From positions 1,024,001-1,088,000 of the forward strand of contig OZ253545.1 in assembly GCA_965262615.1 (NCBI GenBank): a stretch of 64,000 nt of DNA. The letters are read 5' to 3'. The notes beneath the pieces were generated by a model. That model made no database searches. It was not told where the DNA came from and saw only the letters and a program-made list of their open reading frames with translations. How positions within the stretch are numbered: the stretch's first letter is position 1; each line of letters begins with the position of its first letter. This document shows, in pieces, positions 1 through 10,369 of this stretch. Made by a program: the position numbers and the translations under genes. Origin of the DNA: Alphaproteobacteria bacterium (lineage in GTDB: Bacteria; Pseudomonadota; Alphaproteobacteria; GM7ARS4; G965262615).

Positions 1-2604
1 TCTGTGGAGGAGCTGGAACACGCCTTGAGTCGGGGTGTGTTGGATTTGCAGGCGAGCATTCAATTGCGGATGAATTATGTCACCGATGAGGGCAAGACGG
101 TGTATGGCAGAGTGCAGACCACGGCGGGGCGCGTGAAGATTGCCGAATTTTTGCCTCTTCATGAGAATGTTCCGTTTTCCTTGATTAATCGTGTTTTGAC
201 CAAGAAGGATATTAGTCATGCGATGGATGTGGTGTATCGTCACTGCGGACAAAAGGAGACGGTTCTTTTTGCGGATCGCTTGATGCGTCTTGGCTTTCGG
301 GAGGCGTGTCGTGCGGGGGTGTCCATCGGCAAGGATGATTTGATTATTCCGCGCAGCAAAAATAACTTGGTGCAAGAAGCCAATCAAAAAGCCAAGGATT
401 TCGAACAGCAGTACTTGGATGGCTTGATCACCCAAGGCGAGAAATACAATAAGGTGGTGGATTTATGGACCAATTGCACCGATGCGGTTGCCGATGAAAT
501 GATGGGCGAGATTACCCCTCAGGATGAGGGCAAACGGGGCTTTAATTCGGTGTATATGATGGCGCACTCGGGAGCTCGCAGTTCGCGCGATCAGCTCAAG
601 CAGTTGGCGGGGATGCGGGGTCCGATGGCTCGTCCTTCGGGCGAGATTATTGAGACACCGATTATTTCGAATTTCAAGGAGGGATTGTCGGTTTTGGAGT
701 ATTTCAATTCCACGCATGGAGCTCGCAAGGGCTTGGCGGATACGGCACTGAAGACGGCGAATTCGGGTTATTTGACGCGTCGCTTGGTGGATGTGGCACA
801 AGATTGCATCATCACGGAGGAAGACTGCGGCACACGCAAGGGCATTGCCATTGAGGCGGTGATTGAGGGCGGCGAGACCATCTCATCTCTTTATGATCGC
901 ATTTTGGGACGCTGTGCGGCGGAGGATATTGTTTCTGTGCGAGATGGCAAGGTTCTGGCATCGGCGGGGACACTGATTGATGAAAAAATCGCCCGCGCCA
1001 TTGAAGACGATGGCGTGACCCGTGTCTTATTGCGTTCGGTTTTGACCTGTGAAAGCCGCTCTGGCTGTTGTGCTCGGTGTTACGGGCGAGACTTGGCTCG
1101 GGGGGTTTTGGTGAACATCGGCGAGGCGGTGGGTGTGATTGCGGCTCAATCCATTGGCGAGCCGGGGACTCAATTGACCATGCGCACCTTTCACATTGGT
1201 GGGGCGGCACAGCGCGGGGCTGAGGAATCATCCTTGAAGGCGTTGTGTGACGGAACTCTGCGTTTGAACAAAGCCGATTGGGTTGAGAACGCCGATGGTC
1301 GCTTGGTGGCATTATCGCGCTATGTGGAGCTGGTGCTGGAGGAAAACGGCAAGGAGCGGGCGCGTCACCGTCTTCCTGTGGGGACGATTGTGCCATGCAA
1401 GAACAACGCTCAGGTGAAGGCGGGGGATTTGTTGGCGGAGTGGGATCCCTACAATGTCCCCATCATCGCCAAAGAGGATGGCACGGTGAGCTACGAGGAC
1501 ATCACACCGGGTTTGTCTATGCGCCAAGAAACCGATGAAACCACAGGCATCGTCAATAACATTATCACCGACTGGCGACAGCGCAAAGGCAGTGAGCTCA
1601 AACCAGCCGTGGTCGTCACCAATGAAAAGGGCACAGAGCATTACCACTTGATGGTGGATATGATTTTGTCGGTGGATGATAAGCAAAAGGTGAAAAAAGG
1701 CGATATTTTGGCTCGCTCGCCGCGTGAATTCTCCAAAACCCGAGACATCACGGGAGGCTTGCCTCGCGTTGCGGAATTGTTTGAGGCGCGCAAACCCAAA
1801 GATGTGGCGGTGCTGGCGGCAATTGAGGGCGTGGTGGAGATGGGAAAAGACTTCAAGGGCAAACGGCGCGTTGCCATCATTCCCGATGAGGGCGAGGAAG
1901 GCAGGCAGGAATATCTCATCGGCAAAGATAAGCATTTGCTGGTGCGCGAGGGCGATCGCGTCAGCCGCGGTGATTTGCTGGTGGAGGGCGACCCCTTGCT
2001 ACAGGATATTTTGGACATATCCGGCGTGGAAGCCATGGCGCATTTTTTGACCAAAGAAATCCAAGATGTCTATCGTCTGCAAGGCGTGAAGATTGATGAT
2101 AAACATGTGGAAGTCATCATGCGCCAGATGATGCGTAAAGTGGAAATTGTGGACGCAGGAGATTCTCACTATCTGGAAAGCGAACAGCTGGATGTGGAGA
2201 CCATGCGCGATCTGGAAGACCAACTGCGAACGGAAGGCAAAACGCCCCCCCGCTATAAGCGCATTTTGCTCGGCATCACCAAGGCGGCATTGAACACCCG
2301 CTCGTTCATATCGGCAGCATCGTTTCAAGAAACCACACGAGTTTTAACCGAAGCGGCAGTGTCCGGCAAGGAAGATGTCCTGGCAGGGCTCAAGGAAAAT
2401 GTCATCGTGGGACGACTCATTCCCGCCGGCACAGGATGCTACATGAATCAATTGCTCCATGAAGCACTGGAGCGAGATCGCAAATCATTGGCAGAACGAC
2501 AAAAAGAAGTGACGAGCAAAGGAACGGAATCTCTTCCCGCCACAGAAGGTGCTCAGGAGAGTGTTCAGCCTCCTCATCACGAAAAAGCCTTTGTGCAACA
2601 ATAA
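1..2604 (+). CDS. rpoC: DNA-directed RNA polymerase subunit beta', 5'-truncated by window edge
   Basis: [70 protein letters not shown] motifs. Confidence 0.99.
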
Positions 2605-2622
2605 ACATCCACGCCAAAACCT

Positions 2623-2651
2623 TTGAATTACCTTATTGTGTGTGATAAAAT
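2623..2651 (+). promoter_or_regulatory. Putative sigma70 promoter (leaderless) for the ankyrin-helicase gene
   Basis: TTGAAT(2623-28), 17 bp, TGa-TAAAAT(2646-51), then 6 nt to ATG 2658; no Shine-Dalgarno. Confidence 0.6.
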
Positions 2652-2657
2652 GCCACA

Positions 2658-4418
2658 ATGAGCGACAAAGAAAAACTAATTGCCGAATGGCGAAGCGAGA
2701 TTGAACAAGGTCGTTGGAATGAGAATTTTTGGAAAAATCTCACTCCTGCGCGGTTACAGGAATTCATTGACGCGGATGCAGAAATCAATGCTCCAGACAG
2801 TTGGGGGTTCAGTCCAATTCATCGGATTGCTGAAAACAACGAAAATCCTGCTGTTATCAAAAAACTGACTGGTGCAGGAGCAGATATTCACAGCAAAGCA
2901 TATGGCTCGCCCCCTCTTCTTTATGCCGCCCAAAGTAATAGAGAGCCTGCCATCATTAAGGCACTCGTAGAGGCGGGAGCTAAAATCCATGAAGCAACCG
3001 AAAAATGCGGGAAAAACCAATCTTTTGTTGGAAACACCGCACTGCATTGGGCGGCTAGTTCAAATAAAAATGTTGCCGTTATCAAAGAGCTCATTGATGC
3101 AGGAGCAAATATCTATGAAAAAAATGCGGGTGGCTATACGGCTCATGATTTACTACTATCAAGGAATAGCGCGCTCAAAGACAATACAGAGGCTCAAGAG
3201 TTGTTGCGCGGCAAAACCACTAACAAAACCAGTCGTGATGACAATGATGAATATGCAACATCCATTCGCAATGATGAGTATGAGATGCCTCCTCGCAATG
3301 GATTGGAGGATGACAAGGAATATGCAAAAAAGGTCATAGAAGACTGGCTCACAAAGCCCACCCCTCAGATAGCGCGCCTATGGGGTCACGCAGGAACAGG
3401 CAAGACAACCTTTCTCCGTTCATTGGATTTTGGCAACATCAAACCTAGTTACTGTGCTTTCACAGGCAAAGCGGCAAGCGTCATGCGAAAAAAAGGAATG
3501 AAAAAAGCATCAACAATCCATAAGCTGATTTACATGCCCTATTACGGAAACTTGAACAAACCTAAACTCCGTCACTTTACAAGTAAATTAAACCTTATCA
3601 TCGTTGATGAGTGTAGCATGGTAAGTGAAAAAATGGGATTGGACTTATTGTCTGTTACTAAAAAAATTCTCGTTCTTGGCGATAAATATCAGCTTCCGCC
3701 AATGGAAGGAAAAGGTTTTTTCAATGGTGATGAATGTAATGCCATTGACCTTGAATTGAAAAAAATACATCGCCAAAAAGAGGATTCGCCAATAATAAAA
3801 TTTGCCACCCTCGCCAGAAATGGACAGGAAATACCGTTATCTAACAACACGATTTGCACGGTAGAAGATACTTCTATGCCTAATACCACCGAATCATTGC
3901 ACGAAAAGGGTGACATAATTATCTGTGCGCGAAATGACACAAGACACAAAATCAACGAAGAAGCTCTAACAAGGCAAGGTTTGACAAAAGATTGGCTGAT
4001 GGAAGGGATGCAAATTGTGTGCTTAAAAAACAACTATCGTCTTGAATTGTTCAATGGAACAATATGGATAGTAAAAGAAATCAGGGAAATCAAAGAACAT
4101 ACTGATGGTAAAAAGCAAAAGAGCTATTTAACCGCGGAATGTGTCTTGATGGATGATGAAGGAAATAGGAAAGAAGCTCATGTCATCAACTCTTCTTTCG
4201 GTGAAGATAATTACGATGAGTCACACATCAATAAAAATACCCACGCTGCTTTTGACTATGGCTATGCCATCACTTGTCACAAAGCACAAGGCTCTCAATG
4301 GGAGCGGGTGTCAATCTATGTAGAAATGCCGCGCTCATATGATGATTATAATCAATGGCTCTATACGGCTGCTACACGGGCGCAAAAAAGTCTCTATGTT
4401 TTATTTGCCAACGACTAA
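2658..4418 (+). CDS. Ankyrin-repeat / RecD-Dda-like SF1B DNA helicase fusion protein
   Basis: N-term ankyrin motifs (GFSPIHRIA, GSPPLLYAA, GNTALHWAA, GYTAHDL; LxxAGAxI); C-term GHAGTGKTT, AFTGKAA, STIHKLI, IIVDECSMV, LGDKYQLPP, IHRQ, YGYAITCHKAQGSQW, WLYTAATRA; AT-richer than flanks. Confidence 0.9.
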   Translation: MSDKEKLIAEWRSEIEQGRWNENFWKNLTPARLQEFIDADAEINAPDSWGFSPIHRIAENNENPAVIKKLTGAGADIHSKAYGSPPLLYAAQSNREPAIIKALVEAGAKIHEATEKCGKNQSFVGNTALHWAASSNKNVAVIKELIDAGANIYEKNAGGYTAHDLLLSRNSALKDNTEAQELLRGKTTNKTSRDDNDEYATSIRNDEYEMPPRNGLEDDKEYAKKVIEDWLTKPTPQIARLWGHAGTGKTTFLRSLDFGNIKPSYCAFTGKAASVMRKKGMKKASTIHKLIYMPYYGNLNKPKLRHFTSKLNLIIVDECSMVSEKMGLDLLSVTKKILVLGDKYQLPPMEGKGFFNGDECNAIDLELKKIHRQKEDSPIIKFATLARNGQEIPLSNNTICTVEDTSMPNTTESLHEKGDIIICARNDTRHKINEEALTRQGLTKDWLMEGMQIVCLKNNYRLELFNGTIWIVKEIREIKEHTDGKKQKSYLTAECVLMDDEGNRKEAHVINSSFGEDNYDESHINKNTHAAFDYGYAITCHKAQGSQWERVSIYVEMPRSYDDYNQWLYTAATRAQKSLYVLFAND

Positions 4419-4445
4419 TTGAGCATCAACTTTCTCTTGTCTCTA

Positions 4446-4503
4446 TTGACGAAACACGGTGAATTGGTGTAGAAGGTTTCTGTGCTGCCTTATTGGCGGC
4501 ACA
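4446..4503 (+). promoter_or_regulatory. Putative str-operon promoter and 5' leader hairpin
   Basis: TTGACG(4446-51), 18 bp, TAGAAG(4470-75); hairpin TGTGCTGCC-TTATT-GGCGGCACA at 4481-4503. Confidence 0.55.
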
Positions 4504-4541
4504 TTACTTATGGAAACGATCTATGATGCAGATGAGGGACA

Positions 4542-4913
4542 ATGCCTACTGTCAATCAATTGGTGCGCCAGCCGCGCAAGTCGGTGGTCAAGCGCAAGAA
4601 GGTTCCCGCCTTGCAATCCTGTCCGCAGAGACGGGGTGTCTGCACACGCGTTTATACCACGACACCTAAGAAGCCCAATTCGGCGTTACGGAAGGTGGCT
4701 CGGGTGCGTCTTTCCAATGGCTTTGAGGTGACCAGTTACATTCCCGGCGAGGGACATAATTTGCAGGAGCACTCATCGGTGTTGATTCGTGGCGGGCGGG
4801 TGAAGGATTTGCCTGGCGTTCGCTATCATATCATCAGGGGTGCATTGGATACCGAGGGCGTGAAGGATCGCCGCCAGCGGCGGTCGCTCTATGGCGTGAA
4901 GCGTCCCAAGTAA
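4542..4913 (+). CDS. rpsL: 30S ribosomal protein S12
   Basis: [23 protein letters not shown]. Confidence 0.99.
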
Positions 4914-4929
4914 CTGTGGAGAATTTGTG

Positions 4930-5400
4930 ATGTCACGGCGTCATTCAGCCAACAAGCGAGAGGTTTTACCTGATGTTCGTTATGGGGATGTGTCTTTGGC
5001 GCGTTTTGTCAATCAGGTGATGGTGTCTGGCAAAAAATCGGTTGCGGAGCGCATTGTGTATGCGGCGTTGGACTATGTGGGGGAACAGACAAAACGCCCT
5101 CCCATTGAGGTTTTTCGTGCGGCGATGGACCATGTGCGCCCAGGGGTTGAGGTGCGTTCTCGCCGCGTGGGCGGTGCGACCTATCAGATTCCGATGGAGG
5201 TGCGTGCCAGTCGAGCCGAGACGCTGGCGATGCGCTGGCTGATTGGCTCGGCGCGCAAGCGCAACGAGAAACGCATGGCAGACCGCTTGGCGCGTGAATT
5301 GCTGGAAGCCGCCGATGGCAGAGGCAGTGCCGTCAAAAAGCGTGAAGACACCCACAAAATGGCGGAAGCCAACCGCACCTACGCTCACTATCGCTGGTAA
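4930..5400 (+). CDS. rpsG: 30S ribosomal protein S7
   Basis: [22 protein letters not shown]; position in str operon. Confidence 0.99.
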
Positions 5401-5415
5401 CAGGAGTGCAGAATT

Positions 5416-7494
5416 ATGGCTGAACGGCATCCTATTGAACGGTATCGCAACATTGGCATCATGGCGCACATTGATGCCGGCAAGACCACCACCACTGAGC
5501 GCGTTTTGTATTATACCGGACGCACTCACAAGATTGGTGAGGTGCATGAGGGCGCGGCGGTGATGGATTGGATGGAACAAGAACAAGAGCGCGGCATTAC
5601 CATCACATCGGCGGCGACCACATGTTTTTGGAAGGAGCACCGCATTAACATTATTGACACCCCCGGGCATGTGGATTTCACCATTGAGGTGGAGCGGTCG
5701 TTGCGCGTTTTGGATGGTGCGGTGTGTGTGTTTGACGGTGTGGCGGGCGTGGAGCCGCAATCGGAGACGGTGTGGCGGCAGGCGGATCGCTATCGGGTGC
5801 CGCGTTTGTGTTTTGTCAACAAGCTGGATCGCACGGGGGCGGATTTTGATCGGTGCGTCACCATGATTCAGAATCGCTTGGGTGCAGAGCCACTATTACT
5901 TCAACTGCCCTATGGACTGGAGAGCGACCTCAAGGGGCTGATTGATTTGGTCACCATGAAGGCGGTGGTGTGGAAGGACGAAACCCTTGGCAGTGAATAC
6001 GAAGAGGTTGATATTCCTGCCGCTATGCAATCAGAGGTGCAAAAGGCGCGTGAAGCTCTGGTGGAGCGGGCGGTGGAGATGGATGACAGCGTCATGGAAG
6101 CTTACCTTGAAGGCACAGAGCCCGATGTGGAGGCTTTGCGGGGCTGTATTCGTAAGGGATGTTTGGCGTTTTCGTTTGTGCCTGTGTTGTGTGGCTCGGC
6201 GTTTAAGAATAAGGGCGTTCAGCCGTTGTTGGATGCCATTATTCATTATTTGCCGTCACCGTTGGACATTGGCTCGGTGAAGGGCACGGATGTCTCTGGC
6301 GAGAACGAAATGACGCGCGAGGCAAAAGATTCAGAACCATGTGCGGCACTGGCATTTAAGGTTGCGACCGACCCGTTTGTGGGCTCATTGACTTTTTGCC
6401 GCGTGTATTCGGGCACTGTTGAGACGGGGATGTCCTTGCTCAATGTGGTGAAGGATAAAAAAGAGCGGGTGGGGCGCATGATGATGATGCATGCCAATCA
6501 CAGAGAGGATATCAAGAAGGCTCATGCGGGGGATATCATTGCCATTGCGGGACTCAAAAACACCGTGACGGGCGACACACTGAGTTTGTCGGACAAGCCG
6601 ATTTTGCTGGAGAGCATGGATTTTCCTGACCCCGTGATTGAGGTGGCGGTTGAGCCTGAAAGCAAGGCGGATCAAGAAAAAATGAGCTTGGCGTTGGGAC
6701 GCTTGGCGGCGGAAGACCCGTCATTTCGAGTGAGCAGTGATGAAGAGAGCGGACAGACGGTCATCAAGGGCATGGGCGAGCTGCATCTGGAGATTATTGT
6801 GGATCGTATGAAGCGAGAGTTCAATGTGAATGCGTCTGTGGGCGAGCCACAGGTGGCGTATCGGGAGACCATCACCAAGGGCAGTGATGTGGATTATACC
6901 CATAAGAAGCAAACGGGGGGTGCGGGTCAGTTTGCGCGTGTGATTATGTCGTTTGAGCCGTTGTCTGCGGGCGAGGGTTTTGTGTTTGAGTCTAAGGTTG
7001 TGGGGGGGCGCGTTCCCAAAGAGTATATTCCGGGTGTTGAGAAGGGTTTGCGTCAATCCATTGAGGCGGGCATTGTGGCGGGGTTTCCTGTGATTGATTT
7101 CAAGGCGGTCTTGAAAGATGGTGCGTTTCACGATGTGGATTCCAGCGTTCTTGCCTTTGAGGTGGCGGCACGAGCGGCGTTTCGTGAGGCTATTGGCAAG
7201 GCATCTCCTGTGTTGCTGGAGCCGGTGATGCGTGTGGAGGTGGTGACGCCTGAGGAATACATGGGGGATATTATTGGTGATTTGAATTCACGGCGGGGTC
7301 AGGTGTCCGGCATGGAGGCGCGCGGCAATGCGCAGGTGGTGGGGGCGATGGTGCCTTTGGCGTCCATGTTTGGCTATGTCAATGACTTGCGGTCAATGAG
7401 TCAGGGGCGCGCCAGCTATTCCATGCACTTTGATCACTATGAACCCGTGCCTTCCCATGTGGCGGAGAGCATCAAGGAGCGGTACGCCGCTTAA
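5416..7494 (+). CDS. fusA: Elongation factor G
   Basis: [30 protein letters not shown]. Confidence 0.99.
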
Positions 7495-7513
7495 ACCATG
7501 AGGAGATAAGACA

Positions 7514-8704
7514 ATGGCAAAGGCTACTTTTGAACGCACCAAGCCTCACTGCAATGTGGGAACAATCGGACATGTGGATCACGGCAAAACCACACTCACC
7601 GCCGCCATCACCAAAGTGCTGGCGGAGAAAGGCGGCGCAGAATTTCAAGCCTATGATTCAATTGATAAAGCTCCCGAGGAAAAAGAACGCGGCATCACCA
7701 TCGCCACATCCCATGTGGAGTATGAGACCGACAAACGCCACTATGCCCATGTTGACTGCCCCGGACACGCCGACTATGTGAAAAACATGATCACGGGGGC
7801 GGCGCAAATGGATGGCGCAATTCTCGTGGTGTCGGCATCGGACGGTGCCATGCCGCAGACAAGAGAGCACATTCTGCTCGCCCGTCAGGTGGGCGTTCCC
7901 GCCATTGTTGTGTATCTCAACAAGGTCGACCAAGTGGATGACCCCGAACTGCTGGAACTGGTGGAACTGGAACTGCGCGAACTGCTGAGCTCTTACGAAT
8001 TCCCCGGTGACGACATTCCCATCATCAAAGGCTCGGCTCTGGCGGCGGTGGAAGGCAAGGATAATGAGACGGGAGCAAAATCAATTGAGGGCTTGATGAC
8101 GGCGATTGATGACTACATTCCTCAGCCCGACCGTCCCAAAGACCAGCCGTTTTTGATGCCCATTGAGGATGTGTTTTCCATCTCGGGGCGCGGCACTGTG
8201 GTGACGGGGCGCGTGGAGCGGGGCATTGTGTCTGTGAATGACGAGATTGAGATTGTGGGCATCAAGGACACCGCCAAGACCGTCTGCACGGGGGTTGAGA
8301 TGTTTCGCAAGTTGCTGGATCAAGGCGAAGCTGGCGATAATGTGGGCGTTTTGCTTCGTGGCACAAAGCGTGAAGAGATTCAGCGCGGTCAGGTGCTGGC
8401 GGCACCAGGGAGCATCACGCCGCACAAAAAGTTCAAGGCAGAAGCGTATGTGCTGAAGAAAGAGGAAGGGGGTCGTCACACGCCGTTTCAGAGCAACTAT
8501 CGCCCGCAATTTTATTTTCGCACCACCGATGTGACGGGAACGATTGAGTTGCCGTCTGGTGTTGAGATGGTGATGCCGGGGGACAATGTGACGATGATTG
8601 TGAACTTGCTGACTCCCATTGCCATGGACAAGGGCTTGCGTTTTGCCATTCGCGAAGGCGGTCGCACTGTGGGCGCGGGCGTTGTTGCCGAGATTTTGGA
8701 GTAG
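7514..8704 (+). CDS. tuf: Elongation factor Tu
   Basis: [39 protein letters not shown]; AGGAG SD upstream. Confidence 0.99.
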
Positions 8705-8709
8705 TGTGA

Positions 8710-9018
8710 GTGGCAAAAGGACGGAACATTAGAATCAAATTGCGGGCGTTTGACCATCGGGTGTTGGATCGCTCGGTGGGCGAGATTGTGCGCACCGCTC
8801 AGCGCACGGGCGCGCGCACTTGCTGCGTTCCTCTGCCCACGCGCATTGAACGATTCACTTTGCTGCGTTCGCCTCATGTGGATAAGAATTCACGCGATCA
8901 GTTGGAAATTCGCACTCACAAACGCCTCATTGATATTGCCGACCCCACGCCACAAACAATGGATGACCTCATGAAGCTGGATTTGACTTCGGGTGTCAAT
9001 GTGGAGATTGACACATGA
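8710..9018 (+). CDS. rpsJ: 30S ribosomal protein S10
   Basis: [29 protein letters not shown]; GTG start. Confidence 0.97.
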
Positions 9019-9752
9019 CTGAGACACGGCGCAATGGTTTGTGGATGAAGAAAGTGGGCATGAGTCGTGCCTTCACCCCTGATGGTGCGCACATTCCTGT
9101 GACGCTGTTGCATCTTGAATCGTGTCATGTGGTGTCGCTGCTCTCTGAGGACAAGGCGGGCTATGAGGGGGTGCGTCTGGCTTTTGGTATGAAAAAAGAG
9201 AAAAATGTGAGCAAATCGGTGCGCGGCGTGTATCAAAAAGCCATGCAGCAGAACAAAGAGATGGCGATGCCGGCGTTCAGCAGAGAATTTCGCACATCAG
9301 GAATTGATGGGTTGCAGGTGGGTGATGCCATCACGGTGGGACATTTCATTGTGGGTCAGAAGGTGGATGTGCGGGCGCGCTCTAAGGGGCGCGGGTTCAG
9401 TGGGGTCATCAAGCGTCATAATTTTGGCGGACTGGCGGCATCTCACGGGGTTTCTATTTCTCATCGCTCCCATGGTTCAACGGGTCACTCGCAAGATCCG
9501 GGGCGCGTGTTTAAGGGCAAGAAAATGGCGGGACAATACGGCAATCGCTGGTGTCGTGTGCAGAATTTGGAGGTGATGGCGGTGGATGAGGACAATGGCA
9601 TTATTTGTCTGCGCGGCGGTGTGCCCGGGGCGATTGGAGGCTATGTGCAGGTGACCGATGCCATAAAACAGCCAACGCCACAAGTTGTTAAACAGTCAGA
9701 GTCTCATCAAGATAAGGCTCAAGAATTAGAAACACAAAAGGCTTCATCATGA
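9015..9752 (+). CDS. rplC: 50S ribosomal protein L3
   Basis: [39 protein letters not shown]. Confidence 0.98.
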
Positions 9753-10369
9753 AGTTACCTTTGTATCATCTTTTACAATCATCGGTGTCATCCATTGATG
9801 TGACCGATGCGTTGTTTGTCGCCAAGCCTCATCGTGATGTGTTGGAGCGTGTGGTGCGTTGGCAGTTGGCAAAGCGTCAGAGTGGACATCATTCGGTGCT
9901 GGGCATGGGGGAGGTGCGCGGCAGCACGGCTAAACCATGGCGGCAGAAAAAGACTGGACGCGCCCGACAAGGCTCGCGTCATGGTCCTCATTTTCGTGGT
10001 GGCGGTGTGGTGTTTGGTCCTGTGGTGCGCTCTCATGCGCATCAATTGCCCAAGCGTGTGCGTCAGTTGGCTCTTAAGAGTGCGTTGTCGGTCAAGCGCG
10101 ATGCGCAATCGCTGTTTGTTGTGGAATCCATGCATTTGCAAGAAGGCAAGACGAAAATCATGGCACAAGCTCTTGCCATGATGAATGTGCGCTCTGCCAT
10201 GTTGGTAACGGGTGAGACGCTGGATGAGCCTTTGCGCCGCGCCACTCGCAATCTGCCTCATGTGATGGCGGTGAGTCAGGCGGGCATCAATGCCTATGAT
10301 ATTTTGCGTCATGATCATTTGTTGGTGAGCAAAGATGCCCTGCCCTATTTGGAGGTGCGCCTCTCATGA
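9749..10369 (+). CDS. rplD: 50S ribosomal protein L4
   Basis: [24 protein letters not shown]. Confidence 0.98.

Follow-up and report, generated by a model that had tools for sequence, protein, structure and literature searches.

What is a helicase of the phage Dda type doing behind a set of ankyrin repeats, in a single gene lodged between rpoC and rpsL? The question is raised by a stretch of 64,000 nucleotides (nt; hereafter the window) from an alphaproteobacterial genome (assembly GCA_965262615.1, contig OZ253545.1, positions 1,024,001 to 1,088,000), the genome being a single contig of 1.54 Mb and 98% complete. A preliminary description, made from the letters of the DNA alone, had singled out this gene as a sensor-plus-motor protein of a combination it did not recognise as a described family, either a one-gene anti-phage system or an effector directed at the host. 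We find that the fusion is genuine and rare, and that its product, here called P0001, joins a complete ankyrin protein to a motif-complete helicase; tentatively, we place it in phage conflict.

Results

Domain organization of P0001

The gene is a single open reading frame (ORF) of 586 codons on the forward strand, starting with ATG and free of internal stops according to both the ORF list and the translation. Its parts, in coordinates of the window and in amino acids (aa) of P0001, are the following.

2658..4418, + strand: ankyrin / Dda-type helicase fusion gene, 586 aa (Pfam, AlphaFold2, Foldseek, PHROG)
2658..3212, + strand: ankyrin module (aa 1-185) of three canonical repeats between N-cap helices and a C-cap; Ank_2, 76.2 bits
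3213..3308, + strand: disordered acidic linker, aa 186-217; predicted local distance difference test score (pLDDT) below 50 at aa 187-204
3231..3251, + strand: linker motif S-x-D-D-N-D-E (aa 192-198) with Y or H as the next residue; constant in all 8 fusion proteins
3309..4415, + strand: superfamily 1B (SF1B) helicase core of Dda/RecD type, aa 218-586 (phrog_325, Foldseek)
3384..3410, + strand: Walker A / motif I, GHAGTGKTT, aa 243-251; G243, A245, G246, G248 and K249 invariant in 114 sequences
3606..3617, + strand: Walker B / motif II, DECS, aa 317-320; D317 and E318 invariant in 114 sequences

Pfam recognised both halves well above the cutoffs: Ank_2 at aa 55-155 (76.2 bits, cutoff 27.3; Ank itself gave 52.8 bits), AAA_30 at aa 237-391 (69.4 bits, cutoff 27) and UvrD_C_2 at aa 534-581 (56.7 bits, cutoff 27.4), with SH3_13 remaining below its cutoff (24.5 bits vs 41). 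An AlphaFold2 model built from 114 aligned sequences reached a mean pLDDT of 87.8; the eight fusion sequences alone had left the helicase half unusable (pLDDT 58.4). In this model aa 1-185 form a long N-cap helix, canonical ankyrin helix pairs for the three repeats and a C-cap (helix pairs at aa 53-72, 86-105, 128-147 and 162-184, pLDDT about 90), while aa 218-586 make up a compact, well-folded helicase body. The N-terminal half thus belongs to the ankyrin-repeat proteins, with tandem 33-residue helix-loop-helix repeats. A search of the ESM Atlas added little, the whole protein giving one weak match (0.75, a RecB cluster) and aa 30-400 no usable one.

All that the preliminary description had read from the letters about this layout, namely the uninterrupted frame, the ankyrin repeats at about aa 25-185, the acidic linker and the set of SF1B motifs (AGTGKTT, DECS, GDKYQLPP, HRQ, TCHKAQGSQW and TAATRA), is found again in the translation, the domain matches and the model.

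The helicase half

The best family match of P0001 is PHROG phrog_325, "Dda-like helicase" (E 1e-82, 279.9 bits, aa 165-581). All 30 columns that are invariant across 114 sequences of the helicase family are conserved in it, among them G243/G246/G248/K249, D317/E318, G341/D342/Q345, R372, H541/K542/Q544/G545 and R574, so that P0001 possesses the SF1B Dda/RecD motif set with the catalytic Lys, Asp-Glu, Gln and Arg residues. It scores far below the NCBIfam equivalog cutoffs for RecD2 (TIGR01448, 118.5 vs 500 bits) and RecD (TIGR01447, 67.8 vs 310.15 bits), and the RecD2 N-terminal domain is missing. The helicase half is therefore a member of the Dda-like SF1B family and neither RecD2 nor RecD.

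Structural comparison agrees with this assignment. Foldseek searches of the PDB returned Deep-Sea Helicase 9 (8jx6), T4 Dda (3upu, template modelling score on the target 0.64), 8s9i, RecD2 (3gpl and 3e1s), RecD within RecBCD, Pif1 helicases and Dda of L. ferriphilum (9kwf, 0.71), with E values of 1e-20 to 1e-13 for 8jx6, 3upu, 8s9i, 3gpl, 3e1s and 9kwf; among viral models the matches are phage Dda/RecD-like helicases. As modelled, the protein fits two RecA-like domains with an SH3-like 2B domain and a beta-hairpin tower, and its polarity would be 5'-3'. Four giant-virus RecD-like proteins of 704-938 aa were also aligned to the model, over 672-722 columns at a root-mean-square deviation of 18-20 Å, and might represent unrelated ankyrin-SF1B fusions; alignments of this long and loose kind are produced by the RecD2 N-terminal helices (3gpl) as well.

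Searched alone, the helicase half has more than 1000 relatives of 360-430 aa with 33-42% identity, the named ones mostly alphaproteobacterial, and it is 33-37% identical to helicases in 843 of the 50,697 phage records searched. This bears out the earlier remark that the compact helicase type occurs by itself in Alphaproteobacteria and in phages. Within the class the family is patchy: only 7 of 200 evenly drawn genomes contain a match at E<=1e-20, and the three relatives of the same order have no close copy.

In soil alphaproteobacterial contigs (L009-L081) the stand-alone helicase is mostly flanked by a divergent gene of 456 aa (start MARDQIDMTPIE...) and a gene of 735 aa (start MANFK.DVDGDGIA...), a synteny typical of a resident chromosomal gene.

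The ankyrin half and its paralogues

Fifteen open frames of the genome contain ankyrin repeats. By BLAST, 13 ankyrin paralogues were found, and 11 of them lie in one island at 994.5-1009.3 kb of the genome, about 17 kb upstream of the fusion gene. They fall into two classes by eye. Seven carry hydrophobic signal peptides, with an MKxWIFIALALTI-like or comparable leader; four have no signal peptide and start like MxxKEKLLAEWQ..., a fifth having the same cap behind an N-terminal extension.

P0001 belongs with the latter. Its aa 1-185 align from residue 1 with the class lacking signal peptides at 41-44% identity (ORFs at genome 1005911-1006594 and 786120-787823 are among these paralogues), and they include both the N-cap (W..W..FW..LT..LQ.FI) and the C-cap (DLL..N..LKDN.EA..LL) of the family. 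Since the alignment begins at the first residue and both caps are present, this half represents a whole small ankyrin protein placed ahead of the helicase. The N-terminus, which starts MSDKEKLIAEWRSEIEQGRW, is hydrophilic and, judged by eye, no signal peptide; set against the signal peptides of the seven paralogues, this suggests that P0001 is probably cytoplasmic.

The island itself (994542-1009320, minus strand, 15-30 kb upstream of the window start) comprises 11 ankyrin ORFs of two classes with common N-cap and C-cap, interspersed with two small coiled-coil-like genes and a gene for a 579-aa membrane protein.

The acidic linker

Between the two halves, S192, D194, D195, N196, D197 and E198 are invariant in all eight fusion proteins though the region is predicted to be disordered, and the same holds for the invariance of R213, G215 and L216 further on. 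Such constancy within disorder suggests a functional short linear motif. Intramolecular docking of ankyrin-plus-linker on the helicase gave a score of 0.00, which is evidence neither for nor against contact.

Reality and rarity of the fusion

Seven metagenomic proteins (P0002-P0008) have the same architecture as P0001, with 54-69% identity; all are unnamed singletons found in ENA and Logan only. When the junction alone (aa 120-330) was scored, these seven covered 97-100% of it, and the other 113 matches listed at most 57%. Among the best 150 of 1.84 billion cluster representatives, P0002 and the fragment P0008 were the only fusions, all others being ankyrin-only or helicase-only. No fusion was found in 50,697 phage records or in 72,556 plasmid records, and none in GTDB representative genomes, JGI metagenome contigs or IMG/VR, where the relatives returned were helicase-only. 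It is likewise missing from all 40 nearest relatives, and full-text literature searches yielded no description of an ankyrin-Dda/SF1B helicase fusion. The combination, which the preliminary description had not recognised as a known family, is accordingly rare and undescribed, and within the collections searched it is found only in this lineage.

One of these proteins, P0008, is 362 aa long, is encoded on a contig of 127,691 nt and stops after motif III (...GFFNK); it may be a truncated or frameshifted copy.

Sequencing runs support the join as well. In four runs of one study, which may include the sample behind the genome assembly, 87-95% of the sampled words are present. Overlapping exact contigs run across the domain junction in three runs of a single study, for example 3063-3313 and 3284-3873 in run X4, and 3071-3247 and 3226-4295 in run X1. 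Seven independent proteins with the same join, together with the tiling contigs, show that the join is no assembly artefact, and Pfam and the structural model concur that the domain combination is genuine.

At 3071-3247 of the window, runs X1 and X2 contain variant contigs with 20 differences, including in-frame 3-nt insertions or deletions (3151/3153 and 3199), beside the exact allele, which indicates that co-resident strains differ in the ankyrin C-cap. A more diverged allele, with 34 differences over 429 nt, was found in X6, a sponge metagenome of another study, where a contig of 1630 nt joins the 3' end of the gene to rpsL.

Evolution of the two halves

A quick maximum-likelihood tree built from 49 helicase cores groups the seven full-length fusions into one clade (Shimodaira-Hasegawa-like approximate likelihood ratio test 100) on a long stem branch of 1.61 changes per column; the fusion thus arose once. 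Phage and bacterial helicases intermix in the tree, and the fusion clade joins them by its long branch at the midpoint root.

Identity among the fusions is 38-84% in the ankyrin half, which gains and loses repeats, and 59-89% in the helicase half; in the six other full-length proteins all catalytic columns are intact and no frameshift is present. Some pairs are discordant. P0001 and P0002 share 84% in the ankyrin half vs 63% in the helicase half, and P0005 and P0007 share 49% vs 89%. Module exchange between alleles, by recombination at the linker, is a possible explanation of these identities. However, the ankyrin alignment does not reject the helicase topology in the approximately unbiased test (p 0.35), and lineage-specific shifts of rate would explain the identities equally well.

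The rpoC-rpsL slot

Around the fusion gene, the window contains the following features.

1..2604, + strand: 3' part of rpoC (RNA polymerase beta'); 867-aa ORF open at its 5' end, 49-59% identical to the C-termini of relatives' rpoC products
2623..2651, + strand: TG-extended sigma-70-like promoter TTGAAT-17-TAAAAT; 6 nt separate the end of its -10 box from the ATG (leaderless type)
4481..4503, + strand: hairpin with weak T tail, in the 123-nt spacer before rpsL
4542..4913, + strand: rpsL (ribosomal protein S12), 79-86% identical in 11 relatives

The gene begins 53 nt past the rpoC stop, on the same strand, and finishes 123 nt ahead of rpsL. In this genome the gap between the two core genes measures 1937 nt; in 8 of 11 relatives, including all three of the same order, it is about 150-720 nt and geneless. 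This distribution makes the fusion gene an insertion in the present lineage, as the preliminary description had proposed. Two other relatives have other genes upstream of rpsL, and the contig of the last is too short to tell.

In the first of these two (G010; L106, 353-1171), a member of the same class, rpsL is preceded by a 272-aa hydrophobic protein and not by rpoC. In the second (G007; L109, 2-1236), of the same class too, the place of rpoC ahead of rpsL is taken by a 137-aa membrane protein and by a TonB-like, proline-rich protein of some 250 aa that runs off the edge of the locus. These arrangements indicate that the region upstream of rpsL takes insertions or rearrangements in other lineages too.

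Three further traits attributed to the locus hold. The gene has a promoter-like element of its own, TTGAAT-17-TAAAAT being the sole such site in 2300-4800, although the number of sites is not significant in itself because shuffled sequence averages 4.0. It is AT-richer than both flanks, the G+C content in a sliding window being 0.37-0.46 within the gene vs 0.52-0.59 outside. And there is no integrase-sized ORF between rpoC and rpsL, no tRNA gene in 1-10000 and no flanking direct repeat, the repeat search detecting only the internal ankyrin repeat. From the rpoC stop (2604) to the ATG of the fusion gene, the + strand shows no terminator-like site.

With a G+C content of 0.416 and a G+C content at third codon positions (GC3) of 0.392, the gene stands at about the 5th percentile of 1125 long ORFs in the genome. 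The ankyrin half has a GC3 of 0.38 and the helicase half one of 0.40; 10 of 12 measured ankyrin paralogues fall within 0.35-0.44, and the genome mean is 0.558. Together with the three-gene group described below, these values place the fusion gene in a low-G+C flexible gene pool.

That group, on the minus strand at 1009301-1013500 of the genome, about 13 kb upstream and adjoining tuf on its upstream side, consists of three low-G+C genes. One encodes a 328-aa fusion of an HNH endonuclease with HIT (52 and 61.6 bits, respectively), and its two companions (446 and 280 aa) have no Pfam match. It looks like another islet at a junction of core genes.

Discussion

What might such a protein do? The reading we put forward, still short of conviction, is that P0001 is a cytoplasmic DNA motor on an ankyrin protein-binding handle which acts in phage conflict, a sensor-motor of defence type. 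As to origin, a complete ankyrin protein of the symbiont's own subfamily, devoid of a signal peptide, was fused once, through the acidic linker, to a phage-type Dda-like helicase, and the resulting gene was inserted into the rpoC-rpsL spacer with its own promoter of leaderless type. According to our proposal, the ankyrin module would serve as adaptor or sensor: by binding a partner, most probably a protein or a replication intermediate of a phage, the array would recruit or release the helicase, which would then move 5'-3' on single-stranded DNA (ssDNA), unwinding duplexes or stripping bound proteins. The invariant acidic motif could restrain the motor until the partner is bound.

Several observations are consistent with a conflict role. 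The helicase family is patchy (the 7 of 200 genomes mentioned above) and the gene is low in G+C. Its ankyrin half varies widely while the catalytic columns stay fixed. At another junction of core genes, beside tuf, lies the HNH-HIT gene described above. The same helicase clade has also been fused to a cpYpsA SLOG domain, and cpYpsA-type SLOG domains are associated with conflict systems. The defence candidates of PADLOC include several RecD-like helicases with varied N-terminal domains.

An array of other results weighs against the conflict role. Pfam detected no nuclease or other killing domain in P0001, and its neighbours rpoC and rpsL are not defence genes. PADLOC matches are confined to the helicase (E 1e-39 to 1e-19), and for one of the profiles, PDC-M16A, P0001 obtains 134.6 bits vs 176.8, 171.7 and 141 for the stand-alone homologues P0037, P0136 and P0030; those at 176.8 and 141 bits are named Rhizobium/Xaviernesmea and Beijerinckiaceae. 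Since stand-alone homologues score as high or higher, the matches are generic and PDC-M16A does not single out the fusion. The contig from X6 means that the same slot is occupied in a relative, and since rpoC and rpsL are directly adjacent on none of the contigs from the four runs, there is no sign of presence/absence variation. Most of the 16 loci inspected in soil Alphaproteobacteria show the stand-alone helicase in a conserved, non-island setting. In phages its place is within replication modules, adjoining ribonucleotide reductase in 4 of 6 records inspected, and this points to a helper of replication and not to an agent against it.

A one-gene anti-phage system, as the preliminary description worded it, is for these reasons not supported. 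The label of sensor-plus-motor, with "sensor" understood as sensor or adaptor, remains a reasonable one for the architecture; the functions attached to it are proposals. In its most specific form, the idea would be that the symbiont's ankyrin array senses a phage protein, that S-x-DDNDE-Y/H mimics ssDNA or the tail of a single-strand-binding protein (SSB) and so keeps the motor shut, and that the released motor strips or unwinds phage replication intermediates. We regard this one-protein version as unlikely; if true, it would mean immunity by a helicase alone, without a nuclease.

Some of the findings that trouble a conflict role fit an accessory helicase of DNA metabolism. Here a resident bacterial protein, for instance SSB, RNA polymerase or part of the replisome, would be the anchor to which the ankyrin module ties the Dda-type motor. 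The latter would remove protein roadblocks or assist recombination in a reduced genome without another RecD/Dda-type helicase. P0001 is indeed the only strong AAA_30 match in the genome (72 bits; the next have 30 and 28, cutoff 27), and its helicase half has no second match elsewhere in it. The conserved chromosomal settings of stand-alone homologues, the replication modules of the phage copies, the diverged allele in the same slot and the want of an empty slot all suit such a role, and so does a gene that directly follows rpoC, on the same strand and with no terminator-like site between. T4 Dda lets the replication fork pass bound RNA polymerase, and the titles of PDB entries 8s9i and 8gme describe Dda bound to the acidic tail of a phage single-strand-binding protein.

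Other facts sit badly with housekeeping. The helicase family was not found in 193 of the 200 class genomes at E<=1e-20, nor a close copy in any of the three same-order relatives; the gene has a low G+C content and is inserted relative to its kin; the ankyrin half is far more variable than one would expect of a module that binds a conserved housekeeping partner; and UvrD-type and AddA-type helicases are already present in the genome. On balance we hold a housekeeping helper to be possible but doubtful.

Weaker than either, and in our judgement quite improbable, is the reading of P0001 as a host-directed effector, exported so that its ankyrin repeats bind a sponge protein and its helicase works on nucleic acids of the host. 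Eukaryote-like repeat proteins abound in the genome (the 15 ankyrin open frames) and the habitat is sponge-associated, as the run label of the sponge metagenome X6 indicates. In addition, phagocytosis is reduced by ankyrin proteins that phages of sponge symbionts encode (bioRxiv 10.1101/608950). P0001, however, has no signal peptide, unlike its seven paralogues and unlike the secreted Ankyphage proteins (10.1101/608950). A search of the genome found no VirB4-family ATPase (PF03135) and no sheath protein of a type VI secretion system (PF05943), Dot/Icm-specific components not being searched separately, and its only FHIPEP protein is a single FlhA-like copy. Models of the Dot/Icm ankyrin effectors AnkY, AnkH, AnkG and AnkX gave 13.9-23.2 bits against cutoffs of 500-1400. 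To our knowledge there is no precedent for a secreted Dda-type helicase. The host-directed role suggested in the preliminary description thus finds no support in the form in which it was given.

It is extremely improbable that P0001 is an artefact or a decaying relic, that is, a chimeric assembly or a phage-derived gene without present function: P0008, which ends after motif III, may be a truncated copy, but the six other full-length homologues retain every catalytic column, and their helicase halves are 59-89% identical and free of frameshifts, and the seven proteins with the join plus the tiling contigs exclude a chimera for practical purposes.

The interest of the protein lies in the handle. 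Were the ankyrin module to direct the motor to a phage or host protein, this would add a new means of targeting for Dda-type helicases and a first case in which a sponge symbiont puts its ankyrin repertoire to use in its own cell and not against the animal. Should the protein turn out to be a housekeeping helper, it would offer a clean natural case of domain accretion in a reduced symbiont genome. Being small, single-chain and motif-complete, P0001 is easy to express and test; Dda-type helicases serve as motors in nanopore sequencing.

Comparison with known systems

Among defence candidates, P0001 resembles PDC-M16A, PDC-S68, PDC-S53, RecD_like and typeIV_RecD of PADLOC in having a variable N-terminal domain before a RecD/Dda-type motor. 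The profiles of these candidates are longer (691-1273 positions) and matched in part only, and the library contains no ankyrin-helicase model.

A second N-terminal fusion, unrelated to that of P0001, joins cpYpsA (SLOG) to a helicase in two metagenomic proteins, P0193 (730 aa) and P0228 (707 aa), detected among ten long matches checked. Their helicases belong to the same family (40% identity over aa 212-582) and carry a putative sensor domain at the N-terminus (PF12694, E 3e-37 and 6e-44), a SLOG fold that binds nucleotides, unlike the protein-binding repeat of P0001. The two proteins form a clade of their own among stand-alone helicases, with no specific kinship to the ankyrin fusion clade.

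With sponge-symbiont ankyrin proteins and the Ankyphage protein ANKp, the likeness is in the N-terminal half, ankyrin proteins being typical of sponge symbionts (10.1101/608950). Proteins of this type are ankyrin-only and, where characterised, secreted (10.1101/608950), whereas P0001 is without a signal peptide and carries an enzyme.

The stand-alone RecD-like or "exodeoxyribonuclease V alpha-like" helicases of Alphaproteobacteria (360-430 aa) correspond to aa 218-586 at 33-42% identity. They have the N-terminal helix, the Walker A spacing and all motifs in common with P0001 and, like it, are neither RecD2 nor RecD by NCBIfam cutoffs; the ankyrin module and the linker are what they lack.

Finally, P0001 is like the phage Dda-like helicases (phrog_325, T4 Dda 3upu) in its compact motor of about 370 aa, its motif set, its fold and its profile match. 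Unlike theirs, its gene is chromosomal and stands alone between rpoC and rpsL, outside any phage replication module. None of the 843 phage records covers 80% of P0001, hence none has the ankyrin half, and the fusion clade stands apart from all sampled phage and bacterial copies on its stem of 1.61 changes per column.

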